This document shows, one piece after another, positions 1 through 45,209 of a stretch of 47,571 nt of DNA. Below the pieces are notes generated by a model. The model ran no database searches. It was not told where the DNA came from and saw only the letters and a program-made list of their open reading frames with translations. This stretch comes from a virus: UHGV virus genome UHGV-2008342. One strand, given 5' to 3'. The number at the start of each line of letters is the position of its first letter. Position 1 is the first letter of the stretch. A program made the translations under genes and the position numbers.

Positions 1-1284
1 TTACAGACTTCTGGAAGGTTGCGCAGCTCTTACAACACGCGGTTGATCTTCCGCAGCGTCTTCCAGCGCACTTAAATCACGGTCTTTCACCTCTGGCATT
101 TTCAGCGCAGAGATTAAACCAATTACTGAATATGCCATGATCATAATGGCGATCGGATACCAGGATTCCGTCATGGTGCAGAAAATACCCGCCAGGATAG
201 GACCAAAACCGGAAGCGATAAGACCACCAATTTCTTTAGAAATAGCCATCCGGGTAAAGCGGTTTTTACAGCCGAACATTTCTGCCATGGTAATGTTTTC
301 CAGAGCAAATAATCCCAGCACCGCACAGTTATGAATCACAATCAGTGCAACCATAATGGTGCTCGGGGCATAGCTTTTATCTACAATGATAGAAAGCATT
401 GGCCATGCCAGCACAATCGCGGAGGTATTCATAATAATATACGGGATCCGGCGACCAATTTTATCGGATAACCAACCAAGGAACGGAATGGTCATAAAGC
501 CGAGAATCGAACTGATCATCAATGCATCTGTTGGAATTGCTTTGTTAAACAATAACGTCTGCACTAAATAGCCTGCAAGGAAAGTCTGAATTAACCCGGA
601 GTTACCCGCCTGACCAAAACGCAGCCCTGTTGCCAGCCAGAAGGATTTGCTCTGGAACATGCTACCAGCAGGTGCAGGTTTTGCTGTCGGTTGGTTACTG
701 TCGTTAACCTTCTCAAAGACCGGGCTTTCTTTCAGATTCATACGCAACCAGATAGCAAAGACCATCACGACAACGCTCGCCAGGAACGGTATACGCCATC
801 CCCACGCCAGCAGTTCCTCTTTACTGAGAATGAAGAACATAAAGGCCCAGATTGCCGTTGCGCTCAAGGTTCCGCAGTTAGTTCCCATAGCCACAAATGA
901 GGAGATAATTCCGCGCTTACCTTTTGGCGCATATTCCGCCAGCATCGTACCGGCACCGGAAATTTCCGCACCTGCACCCAACCCCTGAATAATACGCAAC
1001 GTCACCAGCAAGATGGGTGCAAAAACACCAATCTGTGCATAGGTCGGTAACACACCAATTAAGGTGGTACAGATCCCCATCATGGTGATGGTAATAAAGA
1101 GCACTTTTTTACGCCCTATTCTGTCGCCCATTTTGCCGAAAATAAATGCTCCGACAATACGCGCCACATAACCTGCACCGTAGGTTCCCATTGCCAGAAT
1201 TAACGCCATTGCCGTTGATGATTCAGGAAAAAATATTTCATGAAACACTAACGCTGCGCCGAGCGAATATAACTGGAAATCCAT
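1..1284 (-). CDS. ydfJ: MFS-family transporter, 5'-truncated at the prophage junction (12-TM sugar/shikimate-type permease)
   Basis: 427-aa ORF, stop at 1-3. Multiple hydrophobic segments and the GRKK/GDRIGRK MFS loop motif. The protein starts inside the first TM region compared with ShiA-type relatives, and AT-rich phage DNA lies immediately upstream. From memory, Qin-type prophages interrupt ydfJ. Confidence 0.75.
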   Translation of the reverse strand: MDFQLYSLGAALVFHEIFFPESSTAMALILAMGTYGAGYVARIVGAFIFGKMGDRIGRKKVLFITITMMGICTTLIGVLPTYAQIGVFAPILLVTLRIIQGLGAGAEISGAGTMLAEYAPKGKRGIISSFVAMGTNCGTLSATAIWAFMFFILSKEELLAWGWRIPFLASVVVMVFAIWLRMNLKESPVFEKVNDSNQPTAKPAPAGSMFQSKSFWLATGLRFGQAGNSGLIQTFLAGYLVQTLLFNKAIPTDALMISSILGFMTIPFLGWLSDKIGRRIPYIIMNTSAIVLAWPMLSIIVDKSYAPSTIMVALIVIHNCAVLGLFALENITMAEMFGCKNRFTRMAISKEIGGLIASGFGPILAGIFCTMTESWYPIAIMIMAYSVIGLISALKMPEVKDRDLSALEDAAEDQPRVVRAAQPSRSL

Positions 1285-1888: not shown

Positions 1889-2002
1889 ATGAACAGCATA
1901 CTGATAATCACATCTCTCCTTATCATATTCAGCATTTTTAGTCATGCCCTAATAAAATTAGGGATTGGCATATCCAATAACCCAGACAAAACCGATGTAT
2001 AA
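1889..2002 (+). CDS. candidate 37-aa hydrophobic small protein ([37 protein letters not shown])
   Basis: ATG with a GAGG Shine-Dalgarno 5 nt upstream. Single predicted TM helix. Below the ORF-track length cutoff. No homolog recalled. Confidence 0.25.
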
Positions 2003-2070
2003 GTCAACATATCCTGAATCAGACATACAATATCGCAATGAAAATCAATAATATTTTAAGGAATATCTTC

Positions 2071-2304
2071 ATGAAATCAAAAGACACCCTAAAGTGGTTC
2101 CCTGCGCAGCTTCCTGAAGTAAGAATTATCCTAGGGGATGCTGTAGTGGAAGTAGCAAAACAGGGAAGACCTATCAATACCAGAACATTGCTTGATTACA
2201 TTGAAGGAAACATAAAGAAAAAATCATGGCTGGATAACAAAGAATTATTACAAACAGCGATATCAGTTCTTAAAGACAACCAAAATTTAAATGGTAAAAT
2301 GTAA
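2071..2304 (+). CDS. ydfK: cold-shock-induced prophage protein YdfK/YnaE family
   Basis: 77 aa starting MKSKDTLKWFPAQLPEVRI with AAGGAA 9 nt upstream. Matches my recollection of Qin YdfK / Rac YnaE. Confidence 0.7.
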   Translation: MKSKDTLKWFPAQLPEVRIILGDAVVEVAKQGRPINTRTLLDYIEGNIKKKSWLDNKELLQTAISVLKDNQNLNGKM

Positions 2305-2620
2305 TATAATAAACTTACTTTTTTATCATTTTTCCACTTTAACAACATTTTGCTCCACTTTTCCACGACCAAACAACTTGAAATCTGGTTAAAATAACAC
2401 GCAACACTATTCTTCTTCCTTGAGTCCGCCCGGAACTCGAAAAACAAACCGAGTTAAAGCCATTTTTCACAAAATCGATTTTGGGTCTCACCAAAATTAC
2501 GGGGTTGCATACGCATTCGTTTATTTTCGAACGTGTACATACAAATATGCACAAAAATAATCATAATTATTTTCTGAGATGCATTATGATATGAACACCA
2601 ATTTCGTATAGAGTCTCACT

Positions 2621-3211
2621 ATGTCTCGAATTTTTGCTTACTGTCGGATATCAACGCTGGATCAGACCACCGAAAATCAACGCCGGGAAATCGAAAGTGC
2701 AGGTTTTAAAATCAAACCTCAGCAAATAATCGAAGAACACATTAGCGGCTCAGCAGCAACCAGTGAGCGTCCTGGTTTTAACCGGTTGCTTGCTCGCCTG
2801 AAATGTGGTGATCAATTGATTGTGACAAAACTGGATCGCCTTGGTTGTAATGCAATGGATATCAGGAAAACAGTGGAACAACTGACCGAAACAGGTATCA
2901 GAGTGCATTGCTTAGCATTGGGTGGCATTGACCTGACCAGTCCAACAGGAAAAATGATGATGCAAGTAATTTCAGCAGTCGCTGAATTTGAACGAGACCT
3001 TTTACTTGAACGCACTCATTCCGGGATAGTAAGAGCCCGCGGCGCAGGGAAACGTTTTGGTCGACCACCTGTGTTAAATGAAGAACAGAAACAGGTGGTA
3101 TTCGAACGAATTAAGTCAGGTGTAAGTATAAGTGCCATTGCCCGGGAATTCAAAACCTCGCGGCAAACCATTTTAAGAGCCAAAGCAAAACTTCAGACAC
3201 CTGACATATAA
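2621..3211 (+). CDS. pinQ: Pin/Gin/Cin/Hin-family serine DNA invertase
   Basis: 196 aa, N-terminal [15 protein letters not shown] with catalytic serine context, C-terminal HTH. Adjacent to tail-fibre genes as in e14, Qin, Mu and P1. Confidence 0.9.
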
Positions 3212-3308
3212 AAAATAATCTCGGTGTGAGATGCTTTACGTCTTCCAAGCCCCCTTCCTTGCCGTAAATGGAAAGATACATCTAATTATAGAATTTATAT
3301 GTTTTACC

Positions 3309-3884
3309 CTACGGCAGGGCTGGCCATTCAATATCCTGTGCAGTTGACGTATCAACACGGTTCAGCAATACCCGATACTTTTTCCATGCTTCCAGCAACG
3401 AGATTTCTTCCTCCGTTGCAATTTCCAGATCTGCAGCATCCTGAAGCGGCGCAATATGCTCACTGGCTACCTGCATCAGGTTGTTTTTTGTTTCTTCCGC
3501 CTCCCGGATCCGGAACAGTTTTTCTGCTTCCGTATCCTTCACCCAGGCTGTGCCGTTCCACTTCTGAAACTCCCCTTCCGGCGATAACCAGGTAACATTT
3601 TCCGGTAACGGACCGAGTTCAGAAATAAATAACGCGTCGCCGGAAGCCACGTCATAAACCGTTTTACCCCGATGATCTTCAACGAGATGCCACGATGACT
3701 CATCACTGTTGAAAACAGCCACGAAGCCAGCCGGAATATCTGGCGGTGCAATATCGGTACTGTTTGCTGGCAGACCTGTATGAGGCGGAATATATGCATC
3801 ACCTTCACCAATAAATTCATTAGTTCCGGCCAGCAGATTATAAATTTTTATGGTCCGTGGTTGTTCACTCATTCTGAATGCCAT
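3309..3884 (-). CDS. tfa: tail fibre assembly protein (Tfa)
   Basis: 191 aa, Tfa-family sequence; start overlaps the stf stop at 3884. Confidence 0.85.
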
Positions 3885-6800
3885 TATGCAAGCCTCACAA
3901 TATAGTTAAATGCGATGTTTTTGACGGTGTTTTCCGCGTTACCAGCAGCGTTAACGGTGATGGTGTGTCCATGTGAACCAATCGCAACGGAGTGCGTATG
4001 AGCACCAATACCGACAGTATGCGCGTGTGCACCTGCAGATGCTGCTGTGCCGGACAGTGAGTGGCTATGATTACCATCTGTACTGGTATTAGCTAACCAC
4101 CCCGTAGACATACCTACTGAGCCTTGTACACCCCAGGTATTTTGACCTGAGCTTGTATAACCATATTGATAAGTATCTTTAAAAACACTGGGGTTAAATC
4201 GACGGCCATCTCTATGGCTGTGATTACCAGCTGCATTCGTGCTGCCACTTAAACTATGGGTATGCGCACCAGTGTTATTCGTGGATTTAGTGCCGTAATC
4301 AAACGACGATGTGGTTTTCGTCCCCAAATCCGTACTGGATGCGCTGGCGCTGTGGGTATGCGATTTAATGCCGTCCTGTTCCTGAGACAATACGGCCCGA
4401 CCACTGGCAGGTTTGCCCTTAATCGTCCAGCCACGCATATCAGGGATCACGCCTGACGGATAAGCCGCTGCAAGTTTCGGGTATGCAGATTTGTCAAAAG
4501 TCTGCCCCTGCATCAGGGCATAGCCAGACGGAACGGTATCTGATGGCCACGGGATTGGTGCACCGACTGGATAAAACTCTGCAGGAGGATGAGCCGAGGT
4601 GTAAAGCTGCGCCCACGGCGACCAGTTTGCGTCGGTCGTATCCCGTCGTGAACGAATAAATGCCGGAGCATGAGCACCGCTTGTACCACTCCAGCCGATG
4701 AGTAACTCACCTTCGCCAACGGCTGTCATCCCTTTCAGGTGAATGATATTTCCATACGCTGTTGGATATCCGTTGTTATACACCTCGTATAACTCAAGAC
4801 CTGTTGCCCCCTGCGTATTGTCTGTCAGCGCGGTTACCCGACCTTTTGAAGACAGATTAACTGATGATACTGCTGTTCCACCTGACGGTAACGCCCCGAT
4901 CTCTGATGCCGTTGGCTTATTTCTGGAGTTATAGTCCCTTCGCCAGCCAGGTGAATAATCTGTTCCGTGATTAATATAGGTAAACTGGGCGTTAGTTGTT
5001 CCACCACCAGTGGAGGTGGTCGGTGTGGTAATGCGGATCGTCATCGCTGACTTTATCCCCATTACTTCAATGACAGCTCCGGCGAGATGAATATTACCGC
5101 AGTCAGTATCAGTAATGATTTTATTATTGCCATAAGACCAGGAACCCTTGCACATCCAGTAGGGATGGTTAAATGCTCCCTGAGAATCCAGCCACTCGAT
5201 AAACTGTGCAGTCGTCCAGTTTCCTGTTATTGTGCTTACTGACCCACCAAAGGCACGGCAGGCACCAATATTTTTCGTAAAGGTGTCTTTGCCAGGGATA
5301 TCCGCACCGTTCTGATCTTTCTGCAGACGTTTCTCAGCATTGTCATAGGCTGTTTTTACTGCCTTTGGTGTCGCGGCAAGCGTTTCAGACGTGCTGTTGG
5401 TCGCGCTGCTTAGCTGGATTATCCCTTTCTGTGCTGTCGTTGCATCCTGTGCGGTGTATTTCCCGTTAGCCAGGTCATACGCGGCCTTAACGGCTTTTGG
5501 TGTTGCCGCCAGTGACTCGGAAGTGCTGTTAGTCGCACTACTGAGCTGTACTATCCCCTTTTTCGTCGTGCTCGCATCCTCAAGCGCCACGGCGGATGCA
5601 ATATCCTCTGCCCGTTTTGCCGCTGTCTCAGCGCGCGTTGCTGCAGATTCCGCCGTACTTTTGCTCTGAGCTGCTGCCTTCGCACTACCAGCAGCCTCTG
5701 TCGCCTTCGTGGATGCCGTCGTGGCGCTGCCCTTCGCTGCTGACGCCTGTCTGGTCGCCTCATCTTTTGAAGCAGACGCCGATGATGCCGATGACGCCGC
5801 CGAACTGGCGGACGATGCCGCTGCCGTTTTTGAGGATTCTGCACGGGTTTCCGACGCTTTCGCGTTCGTTTCGGATGTCTTCGCTGCGGAAGCTGACCTC
5901 GCTGCTGCCGTGGCCTGCTCAGTGGCTTCGCCAGCCTTCGTTGTGGCTGTTGAAGCGGATGATGCGGCGCTTTCTGCCGATTTTCCGGCGGCGGTGGCAC
6001 TGGCTGAGGCCTGCCCGGCACTTGTTGACGCGGCACTGGCAGACGACGCAGCCGCTGTTTTTGAGCCTGCCGCAGCTGAGGCGCTCTGTCCCGCTGCCGT
6101 CTCAGAAGACCTGGCGTTCGTCTCGGACGTTTTTGCCGCCTTCGCGGAATTTCCTGCCGCCGTTGCCGAGGAAGCTGCGCTACTGGCGCTCAAGGATGCG
6201 TTCGTTTCTGATGATTTCGCTGCCTCTTTTGAGGCCGCCGCATCCCGGGCTGAGGTGGCAGCTTCTGACGCTTTCGTGGTCGCGGTGGATGCAGAAGTGG
6301 CGGCTGATTGTTCTGACGCTGCGGCATTCGTTTCTGACGTTTTCGCCGCACCGGCACTGGTAGCTGCCACGCTTTTTGAGGACTCTGCAGCGGCAGCACT
6401 TTTTGAGGCTTCAGTGGCCTTTGTTGATGCCGTTCCTGCGCTGGAAGACGCTGACTGAGCCGACGAAGCGGCCTGTCCGGCTGACGTGCTGGCTGCACGT
6501 GCTGAATCTGCAGCATCAGTCGCATGGGTTGCCGCCTCACGGGCAGATGTGCTGGCATCACTGGCTGACTTCTTCGCGGCTGCCGTGTTCTGTGCCACCA
6601 CGGACGCGTTACGCGCCACCTCTTCCACCATCAGTTCAAAACGGCGCAGTGCCTCAGGACGGGCATCATCCTCCGTCATGGCACCGAGAAAATCATTCAG
6701 CGTACCGGGTCGGGAATCTTCATACACGGTGATGGTCCCGGCATGTGACGGCGGGAATCCTTCCACCAACAGAATAACGCTGTACTGACCGTACTCAACG

Positions 6801-6961
6801 TCCATGCTGTAACGCCCGGCTTCATCCGGATTTTCTGAGGCCAGCGTGTTCACCACCACCGTGGTGCTGTTACGTTTTGCTTTCAGCTGGATTGTGCAGT
6901 TCTGTACCGGTTTTCCTGTGCCGTCTTTCAGTACACCTGAAATCTTTACTGCCATATTCAC
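3884..6961 (-). CDS. stf: side tail fibre protein (Stf)
   Basis: 1025 aa. Long Ala/Ser/Thr-rich low-complexity shaft and a C-terminal His-rich segment (HSHS...[23 protein letters not shown]). Position after lom as in lambda. Confidence 0.85.
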
Positions 6962-7019: not shown

Positions 7020-7619
7020 TCAGAACTTATAACCGACACCCATGATGAAACCGTCAGTGCGCCAGTCGCCACTGCCGGAGCCTTCATAAGCAATATCAAT
7101 GGCCACGGATTCGGTCGGGTTAAACTGCACGCCAGCTCCCCACGCCAGAGACGTGTTGCTGTGGCGACCGTCATCACTTCCGGTCAGCACGTCGTGCGTT
7201 TTCCCCTTGTTGTCAGTTACGCGGAGATAATCCCCGGAGAAAGTCGACACACGGCTGTAAGCCACACCCGCCATCGCATACGCGCTGAACCATTCATTCA
7301 CGCGCACAGACGGCCCCACCATCACGCTGAACCAGCGGTTACGAACGGAATCTTCATGCCAGCGGGTATCGCTGTAATGCGTTTTTTGCTCATCTTCAGC
7401 GTTGGCATAACTGAATGACGTAATCAGCCCCAGCGTGTCCGTAAACTCATAACGGTATTTCACGTTAATCCCGTTCAGATTATCGCTGCCGGGAGCGTTC
7501 GTACGGGCATGAAGATACCCTGCGCTCAGTGTGGCCTGCTGCTCAGACGCCCATGCAGGCGCACCGGATACGGCCAGACAGATGGCTGCGGACAAAATGG
7601 CTGCACAAACTTTACGCAT
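7020..7619 (-). CDS. lom: Lom outer-membrane protein (Ail/OmpX/PagC family)
   Basis: 199 aa, signal peptide ending AWA, C-terminal GYKF beta-barrel terminus. Lambda position between J and stf. Confidence 0.9.
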   Translation of the reverse strand: MRKVCAAILSAAICLAVSGAPAWASEQQATLSAGYLHARTNAPGSDNLNGINVKYRYEFTDTLGLITSFSYANAEDEQKTHYSDTRWHEDSVRNRWFSVMVGPSVRVNEWFSAYAMAGVAYSRVSTFSGDYLRVTDNKGKTHDVLTGSDDGRHSNTSLAWGAGVQFNPTESVAIDIAYEGSGSGDWRTDGFIMGVGYKF

Positions 7620-7686: not shown

Positions 7687-10600
7687 TCAGCTGATACTGA
7701 TGCCTGCGGTGGCTTTCTTCATCACCACAACCAGCAAATCGCTGATACTTGCTGTGGGATACCAGTCATTTACCAGCCATGCTGACACCGAAAACTCCAG
7801 CGTCATGTGGCCGTGACCAGCTGGCATATCAATAACACCACTGTAAATCAGCGTATTATCCAGCGCGGTACGGTTATAAATTTCAGCACCATTTTTCTTC
7901 ACTATCAGGCGGCATGACGAATAAATATCGTTATTCTCCCGCTCATGTTTAGCGCCGCAGAATGCCACCGCCGGAATAACAATTTGCCTGTCAAAAGGCT
8001 GATCGTCATAAATCCTGACGGTAATGGTCCCTGATGGCCACCGCTCCGGTGCCCGGGAGTCCCGCGGGAAAGCCTTACCCACTGTTTTGACAATATCGCC
8101 TTCAATCTGGTTGGCTGACAGTTTCCCTTTAATCTGACAGTTCTCATTTATCGTAACGTTGTTGAGCGTCCCGGAGTTCGCATTCACACTGCCACTGATA
8201 TCTGCATTTTTAGCGGTCAGCTTTCCGTCCGGTGTCAGGGAAAATGCAGGAGGATTACCGCCGCTGGTAATGGTGGGAGCCGTCAGATATTTCAGGAACA
8301 CTTCATTCATGAATATCTGATCACCCTGACCAACAAACATCGGTTTTGTGTTGCCATTTGCAGGATTAATCATCGCAATCCTGTCTGCCGCCAGCAGCAC
8401 CTGACTCTGCATGCCGTCGGGGGTGTTCTCAATACCGGCACCGATACCCGCGATATAAAGGCGTCCGTCCTGCATCTGCTGCAGCTTCACAGCCCACATG
8501 CTGTTCAGATTATTATTTGTATCAACCTGAACCTTCTGTATCTGCTGGATCGCTGCACTCTGGTCTTCCAGTTTCTTATTGACGGTCTGTGTGATTTCAT
8601 TGCTGACATCCGTAATGGATGTCCTGATTTCAGCCAGGTCAGGCGCAAGCTGACCGTTATCAATCTGCGTCCACAGCTCCTGAGCCAGATGGGTTTTCCC
8701 TATCTCGCCTTTGAAAAAATCCAGATAGCCGGATGCGTCATCACTCGGCTGACCAACAGCCTCCACGAATGCCGATTTGCCAACGGTGTTCACACTGCGA
8801 ACGTAAAAATAATAATTATGGCCCGGCCTGATATTGATACTGGCGGCTATCCAGTACAGCGCCGTGCCAAGATAGCGTGCTGTGGTTTCAACCTGCCTGA
8901 TATCCGCAATCCGCTTTTCCGAGAACCAGAACTCAAACTGTACCGTCGGATCATAAACCGCAAGATGCGGCGTGGCGGTTATCTGAAAATAGCCCGGCGT
9001 CAGCTCAATCCGCGACGGCGCTGCCGGTGCGGCAATCCGGAACGATACCGACGCCGGATCGCCCTGCTGCCCCCACGCATTTACTGCCCGGACTGTCAGC
9101 CTGTAGTTCCCCAGAGCCAGTTGTGTGAAGCGGTAAGTGGTTTCCGTCGTCCGGGCCGTGCTGACCAGCCGCTCACTGCCGTCATCCGCTGCCACGGTCA
9201 GGCGAAGCATGAAACTCACGCCCTTCACCACCTTCGGCGTGTCCCAGCGGGCCAGTACCTGATACTCCCCGCTGTCTGCGGTGACTTCGGCAGTCAGGTG
9301 CTGCACTGCTGGCGGCGTGACACCATTCACCGTGCCGCTCTGGTCGCCGTCAAAGTGCGCCCCGTTATCCACGATAGCTTCTTTTTCCGGTACATGCTGC
9401 ACGGCGGTGATGGCATACGTGCCGTCGTCGTTCTCACGGATACTCACGCAGCGGAACAGGCGCTGGCGCAGCGTCGGCAGCTTCAGCCCCCATACGCTGT
9501 ATCCGGCAACGCCGTCAGGAACACGGCTCACTTTTACCTTCACGCCGTCGGTGACGGACTGGACCTCCACGCTGACCGGATTGCCACTTCCGTCAACCAG
9601 GCTTATCAGCGTGGTACCGGAGGATGGCAGCGTGATTTCACGGTCGAGCGTCAGCGTCCGGGTCTGGCTGTTCACCGCCAGCACGCGCCCGCCGGTGCTG
9701 ATCCCCGCATAGTCATCATCGCAGATTTCAATGACATCGCCCGGCACATGGCGAAGCCCTTCCGCACCCACGCTGAAGTCCACGGTCTGCGTTTCCAGTA
9801 GTTCCGTTTTAATCAGCCACAGCCCGGCGCGGTGCGCCTGCCCCCGGCTGGTACAGCCAAAGGCATCCATCTTCGTGACGTTACGACCGTAACGGAGAAT
9901 GGCCTGCGTATCTTCAACAAGCTCTGTCGCCGTCTCCCAGCCGTTATCCGGGTCAATCCAGTTCACCTCAACGGCATTATGACGGTCCTTCAGGGCACTG
10001 AAGCTGTAGCGGAACGGCGCGCCATCATCCGGCATCACCACATTACTGCAGTTATAGGTCCACACCTTATCCGACGGTCGGTCCTGCACGAACGTCAGCG
10101 TCTGCCCGTTCCATACCGGCATACAGCGCATCGCCGAGCAGAAATCACTGAGAACATCCCACGCCTTGCGCTGTGTGGTCAGCCAGGCATTACAGGTGAT
10201 GCGCGGCTCCGTGCCACCAAAGCCATCCGGCACCGACTGGTCGCAATTCTGGCCGATGACATACAGCGCCCATTTGTCCACATCCGCCGCACCGAGACGC
10301 TTCCCCATGCCGTAGCGCGGATGGGTCAGCATATCCCACAGACACCAGGCCATGTTGTTGCTGTATGCTGGCTTAAACGTTCCGTCCCAGATACCGCTGT
10401 ATTGCCGCGTCTGCGGGTTATAGTTCGACGGCACCTGCAGAATGCGCCCGCGAAGATGATAATTACGGCTCACCTGCTGGCTGCCGAACTGTTCCGAGTC
10501 CACCTGCACGCCGACCAGTGCCGTGTTCGGGTAGCACTGTTTCACATCGATGATTTCGGTGTATGACGACCAGAGCGTTTTGTTCTGCAGCTGGTCTGTG

Positions 10601-11166
10601 GTGCTGTCCGGCGTCATTCTGCGCATCCGGATATTAAACGGGCGCGGCGGCAGGTTATCCACCACCACCGAGGCCAGATACTGCGAGGTGGTTTTGCCCT
10701 TAATGGTGATGTCTTTTTCCGTCACCCAGCCACCATTACGCTGTATCTGAACCAGCAGGCGAACTTCCGACGGATTCCGGTCCCCCTTTGAGGTGGTTTC
10801 CACCAGTGCCTGCACACCGAAGGTAAAGCGCAGTCGGTCGATGTTTGCCGACGTGATGGCGCGGGTGATCGGCGTGTCGTATTTCACTTCCGTACCCAAC
10901 ACCGTCTCGGAGCCGGAGGATTCAAATCCCTCCGGCGGTGTCTGCTCCTGCTCACCAGCCCGGAACACCACCGTGACACCGGCGATGTTGGTATTCCCAT
11001 CACTGTCCAGCACCGGCGTACTGTTCAGCAGCACGCTTTTTAATCCATCCACCGGACCTTCAATCGGCCCTTCACTGATGGCATCAATCACACTCAGCAA
11101 CTGCGTGGACTTCAGGTTGTCCTTCGCTTCGCGCGGGGTATGCCCCTTACTGCTTCCTTTACCCAT
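7687..11166 (-). CDS. J: tail tip host-specificity protein J
   Basis: 1159 aa. N-terminus [37 protein letters not shown] matches lambda J as I recall it. Central and C-terminal regions diverge from lambda. Confidence 0.95.
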
Positions 11167-26496: not shown

Positions 26497-26673
26497 TGTT
26501 CATTCCACGGCCAAAAACAGAGAAAGGAAACGACAGAGGCCCAAAAGCTCGTTTTCAGCACCTGTCGTTTCCTTTCTTTTCAGGGGGTATTTTAAATAAA
26601 AACATTAAGTTACGACGAAGAAGAACGGAAATGCCTTAAACCGGAAAATTTTCATAAATAGCGAAAACCCGCG

Positions 26674-45028: not shown

Positions 45029-45209
45029 AAAGTGAATTTTGTGATGCGGTGAATGCGGCTCAGCGCACGCGGAACAGTTAAAAAGCGATTAGTTCCCCCG
45101 TATCGGGTGTTTATGGGTTTCCCTGTATCCGGCGTTAATTGTTAACTGGTTAACGTCACCTGGAGGCACCAGGCACCGCATCACAAAATTCATTGTTGAG
45201 GACGCGATA

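Follow-up and report, generated by a model that had tools for sequence, protein, structure and literature searches.

The pinQ gene beside a single stf/tfa tail-fibre cassette is very probably a former transposon resolvase

In the virus genome UHGV-2008342, of which a stretch of 47,571 nucleotides (47.6 kb; in the following ‘the window’) was analysed, a small serine recombinase gene, pin, lies next to a single tail-fibre cassette consisting of the side tail fibre gene stf and the gene of its assembly chaperone, tfa. Such a neighbourhood raises the question of whether the fibre is part of an inversion switch of host range as in the Gin/Cin/Pin systems and, if so, whether this switch is still intact. 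A preliminary description, based on the sequence alone, had interpreted the gene as a Pin invertase that either had lost a second cassette or acted on unusually placed crossover sites. Listing of the open reading frames (ORFs) and comparison to Pfam confirmed the genes of that description at their places, i.e. pin at 2621-3211 with a single tfa and stf C-terminus, and also the short gap between tfa and pin (given as less than 100 bp), as the two genes converge with 97 bp from stop codon to stop codon. The interpretation, however, has to be changed. The explanation that we hold with high confidence is that pin, called pinQ in the Qin prophage of Escherichia coli K-12, is a former transposon resolvase and not a Gin/Cin/Pin-type invertase, and that it was never joined to an invertible fibre segment. 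The region would thus consist of two unrelated neighbours, an ordinary stf-tfa cassette at the end of the late operon and a decayed mini-element of the Tn3 family.

The first line of evidence is the kinship of the protein. PinQ contains a catalytic serine (Ser11, in the motif YCRISTLDQ) and a C-terminal helix-turn-helix (HTH), but because these are common to resolvases too, they do not discriminate in favour of the Din family of invertases. Among themselves, Gin, Cin, Pin and Hin are about 60-70% identical. The identity of PinQ to Gin and to PinE, the invertase of e14, is only about 38-40%, in agreement with the published value of 38% for PinE (PMC12529663). Of the solved structures, Gin was the best match (E 3e-29), with the gamma-delta and Tn3 resolvases close behind (E 2e-22). 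This best match, together with the label ‘DNA invertase’ that phrog_125 gives to pinQ and its place beside stf/tfa, would suit the remnant of a Gin/Cin/Pin host-range switch, from which one of two fibre-tip/tfa cassettes was deleted and an orphan invertase left. The low identity to PinE and Gin and the nearly equal match to gamma-delta resolvase argue against such a remnant, and so do the closest non-prophage relatives of PinQ in a database search, which are 78-85% identical at the amino acid level and in many cases located on plasmids; the TnpR (transposon resolvase) proteins encoded beside Tn3-family transposase genes are 77-85% identical to PinQ. More than 1600 plasmids have a homologue of at least 60% identity. 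In the E. coli plasmid pRM10386-2 and in Shewanella, the homologue is divergent to a protein of 914-1033 amino acids with a DDE_Tnp_Tn3 domain (E 1e-123 to 1e-148) and DUF4158, and at two other loci (L020 and L027) remnants of Tn3-family transposases lie beside it. A Pin invertase of the Gin/Cin/Pin kind, as initially proposed, is not compatible with these values.

Important insight can be gained from relatives that are still intact. In the case of pRM10386-2, the gene belongs to a complete transposon of 3814 bp. Its two terminal repeats of 38 bp are identical (GGGGTCCGCTTGGAAAACGGAAAATATCCCACGCTAAG), and TTTTA stands on either side of it as a perfect target duplication of 5 bp; the transposon may be Tn5403-like. 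In the case of plasmid pE16-3, an 852-bp element is found that consists of inverted repeat (IR), resolution site (res), tnpR and inverted repeat, without the transposase gene tnpA. At least 80% of this element is contained in 142 plasmids, and the non-autonomous Tn3 derivatives called TIMEs are the appropriate comparison for it. Furthermore, ten homologues (from E. coli plasmids, Shewanella, Photorhabdus, Erwinia, two Burkholderiales, a Rhodobacterales and an Erwinia phage) show one and the same upstream architecture at fixed distances from the ATG: a dyad of 26-28 bp (TGTCCGAAAnCGAnCGGTTTCGTACA; site I), a wider dyad (site II), a TATAAT box and site III. A res of three subsites is the classical arrangement of transposon resolvases in Tn3 and gamma-delta. 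This arrangement of the transposon resolvases is summarised in PMC2794168. Erwinia phage LS-2018a, which has a 61% homologue, shows a co-evolved res-like upstream region, and no invertible segment was found in this phage.

Some of the relatives are composite. The database proteins P0004-P0008 are hybrids, with an N-terminal half of the plasmid TnpR type (Arg at the position of R71 in Tn3 resolvase) and a C-terminal half of the prophage PinQ type, which indicates natural recombination between plasmid tnpR and prophage pinQ alleles. On contig83 of Erwinia oleae (L022), two PinQ-clade resolvase genes stand head to head with res-like dyads between them; the start of the second is seen on the opposite strand, about 200 bp ahead of the homologue at 2068.

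The organisation of the intact elements can be followed in the window. Colinear homology to the pE16-3 element extends from the exact start of the left repeat (IR-L) to the ATG and, beyond it, across pinQ as far as the tip of the right repeat (IR-R). In addition, a weight matrix built from the repeats of the relatives was applied to both strands of the window. Its two top matches, at 3220-3250 on the minus strand (19.8 bits) and at 2428-2458 on the plus strand (15.4 bits), flank pinQ in inverted orientation, the random maximum being 12.7 +/- 2.4 bits and the highest value in 200 simulations 18.8 bits. Altogether, three features of a Tn3 module are found here: kinship with tnpA-linked TnpRs, terminal repeats of about 38 bp of the type GGGG...(C/T)TAAG, and a target duplication of 5 bp, the length expected from Tn3-family transposition. 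We therefore propose a non-autonomous, decayed Tn3-family element of 834 bp (2421-3254), which would be composed of IR-L, res, tnpR (i.e. pinQ) and IR-R and would have transposed into the b-region of the phage, where ydfK and the 3' end of tfa now flank it, with TTCCT as the duplicated target.

Compared to the Tn3-family elements mentioned above (pRM10386-2, pE16-3 and the general architecture of Tn3/gamma-delta), the recombinase of this element is likewise of the TnpR type (85% identical), its res is homologous and equally far from the ATG, and its repeats and target duplication agree in type and length; its size is close to the 852 bp of the pE16-3 mini-element. It differs from them by the absence of a transposase (tblastn with a TnpA query gave nothing in the window), by degenerate repeats (IR-L starts with TGAG in place of GGGG, and IR-R lacks 3 nucleotides), by eroded res sites I and II, by an Arg to Cys exchange in the recombinase and by its location, which is a phage b-region and not a plasmid. 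A transposon origin also explains the odd orientation of pin and the 97-bp gap, which comprises one end of the transposon, the second copy of TTCCT and about 50 bp that belong to the phage. The absence of any tfa' remnant from this gap is a further point against a switch that lost one of its cassettes.

The res of the window is probably a non-functional vestige, as judged from its sequence. With a matrix derived from six enterobacterial and betaproteobacterial relatives, site I reached 7.0 bits and site II 9.8 bits, compared to 27.7-33.9 and 25.8-32.4 bits in the relatives, and the dyad symmetry was lost. The right half of site III (2600-2611) is the best half-site of the whole window (13.5 bits), and the matrix scan detected no good res dyad elsewhere in the window. 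As the recognition helix of PinQ is essentially the same as in the relatives, the sites are probably eroded rather than co-evolved.

Two small repeats were also noticed. Firstly, CCAATCCGTGTAGAGTCTC, upstream of ynfT, forms a direct repeat of about 20 nucleotides (1686-1711 versus 2594-2617) with CCAATTTCGTATAGAGTCTC, the res site III / leader directly before pinQ (17/20, one gap); no site I-like dyad accompanies CCAATCCGTGTAGAGTCTC, which could be a stray site III-like relic or a product of chance. Secondly, the phage DNA between ydfK and IR-L contains three copies of TTTTCCAC / TCCAC at 2331-2375 (cattTTTCCACtttaacaacattttgcTCCACTTTTCCACgacc).

K-12 Qin, Rac-type copies, E. ruysiae, Shigella and phage Tritos carry the same repeats, target duplication and vestigial res, and these also surround a diverged pinQ allele (85% amino acid identity) at the same site. 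Thus, the insertion is ancestral to this phage group.

Several observations weigh against this explanation. An empty target site, with the flank of ydfK joined to that of tfa, was not found in E. coli genomes, phages, viral contigs or metagenome contigs; in one of these searches, the 25 records listed of the 30 with at least 80% coverage are all occupied sites joined as two pieces. The insertion is therefore deduced from the repeats and the target duplication and not from presence and absence. Both repeats are degenerate (about 27/38 positions each), and IR-L taken alone lies only about one standard deviation above the random maximum of the window, so that its assignment relies on position, orientation and colinear alignment. 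Finally, low scores of the res sites could in principle reflect a co-evolved specificity like that of Erwinia phage LS-2018a, but this is disfavoured by the unchanged recognition helix and the lost dyad symmetry.

Next to the origin of the gene stands the question of whether anything in the region inverts. The window resembles the Din switches (Pin/P of e14, Gin/G of Mu and Cin/C of P1) in the position of a small HTH serine recombinase beside tail-fibre genes and in the related families of tfa and stf tips. These switches differ, however, in having two inverted cassettes, bounding sites of 26 bp, an invertase that faces outward and both orientations in sequenced genomes, none of which was found in the window. 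Regarding the crossover sites, a Din-site weight matrix was composed of the real pix half-sites of K-12 and of gix/hix half-sites. In the whole window its best score was 10.9 bits, at a random maximum of 11.6 +/- 2.1 bits, whereas real sites reach 27-30 bits. The core AAACCNNGGTTT with up to 2 mismatches matched 19 times in the window (24.5 expected), and the pix 16-mer with up to 3 mismatches did not match at all. Inverted-repeat searches around pin and over the whole window gave only chance-level pairs near pin, and a promoter/terminator scan and fold of the gap between pin and tfa yielded nothing notable (z = -1.3).

Two weak gix-like half-sites had been proposed before, near 2445-2452 and 4163-4181. 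Their coordinates were slightly off, the motifs being located at 2446-2453 (AAACCGAG) and 4155-4173 (GTATAACCATATTGATAAG), and with at most 3.0 bits each neither is gix-like. GTATAACCATATTGATAAG is nothing of interest; AAACCGAG is nevertheless not noise, as it constitutes the inner part of IR-L. These two motifs would suggest an intact though unusual switch, with crossover near 2446 and 4155-4173 and a segment in which pin, tfa and the stf tip are inverted together, Hin-like with the recombinase inside. Synthetic queries were constructed with 2449-4172 (pin, tfa and stf tip), 3261-4600 (tfa and stf tip) or 2450-3260 (pin alone) inverted, and compared to 5426 complete E. coli genomes. A genome with the inverted form was expected at about 100% coverage, the non-inverted baseline amounted to 52-58%, and the cut-off was set at 80% or more. 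For each of the three queries, no genome passed the cut-off, and the best coverage was that of the non-inverted baseline. As a control, the P segment of e14 was found in inverted form in 112 genomes (100% coverage, 100% identity), including other MG1655 assemblies, so that the procedure does detect real switching. Similarly, published BLAST evidence of inversions is restricted to e14, with none for Qin or Rac (Kirigo et al. 2025, PMC12529663). Inversion of 2449-4172 would moreover fuse stf to non-coding antisense sequence. Taken together with the motif scores and with IR-L, which accounts for the motif at 2446, the genome comparison refutes an intact switch at the level of the population and makes it so improbable that it hardly needs to be entertained.

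The remnant of a switch deserves little more credit, and we consider it highly improbable. In e14, pinE points away from the P segment, whereas pin of the window converges on tfa, an arrangement that cannot result from a simple deletion. A pix/gix-like site is absent from the window even in degenerate form, and there is no second tfa/stf cassette, neither near pin nor elsewhere in the window; the antisense ORFs within tfa gave no family matches. Additionally, phage Tritos has the identical pin block beside unrelated fibre genes, from which it follows that the pin block is a module separate from the fibre cassette. With respect to kinship, crossover sites, second cassette and both orientations, four defining features of a Din-family switch that were tested, the locus is not such a switch. 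Of the deleted second cassette proposed initially, the orphan recombinase and the fixed fibre remain, but not the lost cassette or the Gin-type switch that it presupposes; the more modest alternative of that description, a fixed fibre with a remnant recombinase, is what the missing crossover sites and inverted forms point to.

The fibre cassette itself is of the lambda type. An N-terminal phage_tail_N domain, fibre repeats and a collar are followed by a Caudo_TAP chaperone, all downstream of J and lom. Phage lambda has the same stf domains and the same position of stf-tfa after J and lom, and from about 3322 onward tfa is about 95% identical to lambda tfa at the nucleotide level. Lambda differs downstream of tfa, where it has its own b-region, while the b-region of the window contains the pinQ element, ydfK and ynfT. 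Since neither a pair of crossover sites nor a second cassette exists and thousands of genomes show one and the same orientation, the fibre is fixed, with no switching of specificity by inversion. Between strains, fibre specificity varies as the tfa/stf-tip module is exchanged via homologous recombination: when genomes are compared, recurrent homology breakpoints are seen at about 3319-3322, 3420-3428, 4036-4049, 4441 and 4570-4578, the signature of such a replacement of cassettes.

A single genome showed an inverted stf fragment near pinR. In E. coli BE2-5 (NZ_CP032986.1 2470435-2485790; counterpart of window 4070-4439), the Rac prophage is scrambled, and an inverted block with an stf fragment (amino acids 842-892), the gene of the terminase small subunit and a small ORF lies between the N-terminal part of stf and the stf tip (amino acids 892-1025). 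Both junctions are at amino acid 892 of stf (window about 4286). A Pin-mediated inversion was considered here and rejected, as the arrangement occurs in 1 of the 5426 genomes and its junctions lack features of a recombinase site.

The genomic setting of these modules is an ordinary one (Table 1). In K-12, Qin shows the gene order ydfJ, ynfT, ydfK, pinQ, tfaQ, stfQ at the same site, and K-12 PinQ differs from PinQ of the window by 2 amino acids. The window is therefore an E. coli prophage of the lambdoid Qin/Rac type, located at ydfJ and with intact tail genes, and pinQ, tfa and stf belong to its right end. Matching E. coli genomes carry the RefSeq names ynfT/ynaM, ydfK, pinQ/pinR and tfaQ/tfaR. 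The 2.7 kb around pin are 100% identical to E. coli strain EC11, and 1898 of the 5426 genomes have a colinear layout of the pin region (coverage of at least 80%). K-12 Qin and Rac (pinQ-tfaQ-stfQ and pinR-tfaR-stfR) share with the window the terminal repeats, the target duplication and Cys76 of the recombinase. Qin of K-12 differs by a truncated stfQ, deleted tail genes and nohA after stfQ, whereas in the window stf has its full length (1025 amino acids) and lom, J and the remaining tail and head genes are present. Among viable phages, an identical PinQ protein is found in Tritos, mEp460, 2H10 and HannyBb, among others. The order in Tritos (recE, xis, int, ydfK, pin) places pin in the b-region, in the reading direction of the pL operon and converging on the late operon. 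The locus as such is ordinary, and the pinQ/pinR gene, its layout and its orphan status were already known from Qin and Rac.

Table 1. Positions of genes and proposed element parts at the right end of the prophage (window coordinates)
Feature	Position	Strand	Basis
ydfJ, host transporter gene	1..1284	-	ORF; K-12 annotation at equivalent position
Prophage boundary	~1276		K-12 annotation puts the Qin boundary at the equivalent position
ynfT, small protein of the YnaM/YnfT family; prophage b-region	1889..2002	+	NCBIfam NF041477, E 1e-17; RefSeq annotation of matching genomes
ydfK, cold-shock protein gene, prophage b-region; upstream of and co-directional with pinQ	2038..2304	+	Annotation in matching genomes; phrog_2718
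Target-site duplication, left copy, TTCCT	2416..2420		Identical to 3255-3259, at the position predicted from the repeat ends
Vestigial IR-L, 38 bp; contains AAACCGAG	2421..2458	+	Colinear alignment to pE16-3 IR-L; IR matrix
Eroded res site I (ancestral crossover site)	2507..2534	+	Orthologous alignment position; 7.0 bits
Eroded res site II	2547..2580	+	Alignment; 9.8 bits
-10 element (TATGAT) and res site III / leader, largely retained	2585..2612	+	Alignment; right half-site 2600-2611
pinQ, TnpR-derived small serine recombinase, 196 amino acids, Cys76	2621..3211	+	Pfam Resolvase, E 3e-36, and HTH_7; PDB comparison; relatives
Vestigial IR-R with 3-nt deletion; reverse complement GGGGGCTTGGAAGACGTAAAGCATCTCACACCGAG	3220..3254	-	IR matrix; plasmid-element homology stops at the repeat tip
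Target-site duplication, right copy, TTCCT	3255..3259		Read from the sequence
tfa, tail fibre assembly chaperone, single copy	3309..3884	-	Pfam Caudo_TAP, E 4e-43; phrog_105
stf, full-length lambda-type side tail fibre, 1025 amino acids, one fixed C-terminus	3884..6961	-	Pfam phage_tail_N, Phage_fiber_2, Collar; phrog_295
lom	7020-7619		ORF listing, Pfam
J	7687-11166		ORF listing, Pfam

Two structures were observed further away from the fibre genes. A perfect inverted repeat of 19 bp (TGAATTTTGTGATGCGGTG) occupies 45033-45051 and 45174-45192 in the early prophage region, with 122 nucleotides between its arms. At 26521-26577, a hairpin is found with arms of 26 nucleotides that are 85% complementary and a loop of 5 nucleotides; it resembles the hairpin that precedes nu1 at the left end of lambda DNA, a likeness suggesting that cos and the first packaging genes are situated at about 26.6 kb.

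In strain EC11 (NZ_CP027255.1 4830000-4927999), a prophage extends from a tfa gene beside potB to its integrase beside mlrA, and these ends suggest a chromosomal rearrangement between two prophages. Many genes of this prophage are annotated as frameshifted, which may reflect assembly errors, and no serine recombinase is annotated in a neighbouring EC11 prophage.

If PinQ is a former resolvase, its present activity becomes a question of its own. The motif of PinQ reads KLDRLGC, compared to KLDRLGR in 112 of the 120 closest cluster representatives, and alignment to D67-R68-L69-G70-R71 of gamma-delta resolvase places Cys76 on R71. The other members of the catalytic set are present as Y7, R9, S11, E39 and R73 (the set in Tn3 being Y6, R8, S10, D36, R68 and R71). 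In the case of Tn3 resolvase, the mutants R71A and R71K no longer recombine, and their cleavage is about 1000-fold lower (PMC2794168). An exchange of Arg to Cys at this position would predict a strongly weakened catalyst. Cys76 is also found in K-12 PinQ and in the diverged allele, the reading frame of which is intact, and is therefore old and retained. Both this residue and the transposon origin of PinQ appear to be undescribed, as neither was found in the searchable literature.

Because res I, the crossover site, and the accessory site II are eroded while the DNA-recognition helix is kept, PinQ would be unable to resolve or invert in cis. As the promoter-proximal site III and the -10 element survive, pinQ is probably still expressed and perhaps still autoregulated. 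Any present activity would have to be exerted in trans, on sites elsewhere.

Precisely such an activity was proposed recently. PinQ would then be a fully active trans-acting invertase kept as an anti-phage device. According to Kirigo et al. (2025), it inverts the e14 P segment via the pix sites, which yields StfE2 and thereby keeps T2 from adsorbing; such a function is compatible with a transposon origin. Overproduction of PinQ raised inversion of the P segment from about 30% to 88% and protected against T2, the effect required stfP, stfE and e14, and deletion of pinQ sensitised the cells to T2 (PMC12529663). The 100% conservation of PinQ in viable phages is in line with such a role. On the other hand, deletion of pinE locks the P segment despite the presence of pinQ and pinR, and the paper describes no experiment on PinQ in cells that lack pinE (PMC12529663). 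Cys at the position of the catalytic Arg also argues against a fully active enzyme, as do the pix half-sites, which score about 2 bits with a half-site matrix of the PinQ clade compared to 13-17 bits for most genuine half-sites. Furthermore, in EC11, which is identical to the window over the 2.7 kb compared, an intact icd adjoins iraM without e14, so that the reported target of PinQ is absent at its usual site. On balance, we regard trans-acting inversion as quite possible, if somewhat short of probable. Resemblance of pix to the TnpR-clade half-site was also tried as a predictor of action in trans and discarded as weak, at about 2 bits.

At the other extreme, pinQ could be a decaying passenger without recombinase function, either neutral or kept only as a DNA-binding/autoregulatory protein. 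The eroded res I and II, the Arg to Cys exchange and the loss of tnpA would fit with this, and so would the lack of any associated rearrangement in about 4800 genomes. This is nevertheless rather unlikely, given an intact ORF that hardly varies among thousands of genomes and among viable phages, a diverged allele that keeps both frame and Cys76, suggesting constraint, and the published phenotypes of the pinQ deletion.

A further possibility, which we put forward tentatively and with some doubt, is that PinQ and PinR are catalytically crippled former TnpR resolvases (Cys at Tn3-R71, eroded res) that influence the P segment indirectly. They would bias or partner PinE, by mixed tetramers or by occupancy of sites, and not carry out strand exchange of their own, with a binding helix tuned to TGT(C/A)CGAAA half-sites and not to pix. 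Some points count, like the missing empty site discussed above, against our main explanation of pinQ as a decayed resolvase: the full conservation of PinQ in viable phages and the maintained ORF of the diverged allele suggest selection for some function, and the published shift of the P segment means that the Cys76 enzyme may still be active.

In conclusion, a recombinase gene beside tail-fibre genes is not automatically a host-range switch; here, and in about a third of the complete E. coli genomes, the arrangement is fixed. The transposon origin, very probable as it is, corrects the long-standing naming of PinQ and PinR as ‘Pin-like invertases’, and the exchange of Arg to Cys bears directly on the 2025 claim that PinQ inverts e14 DNA.

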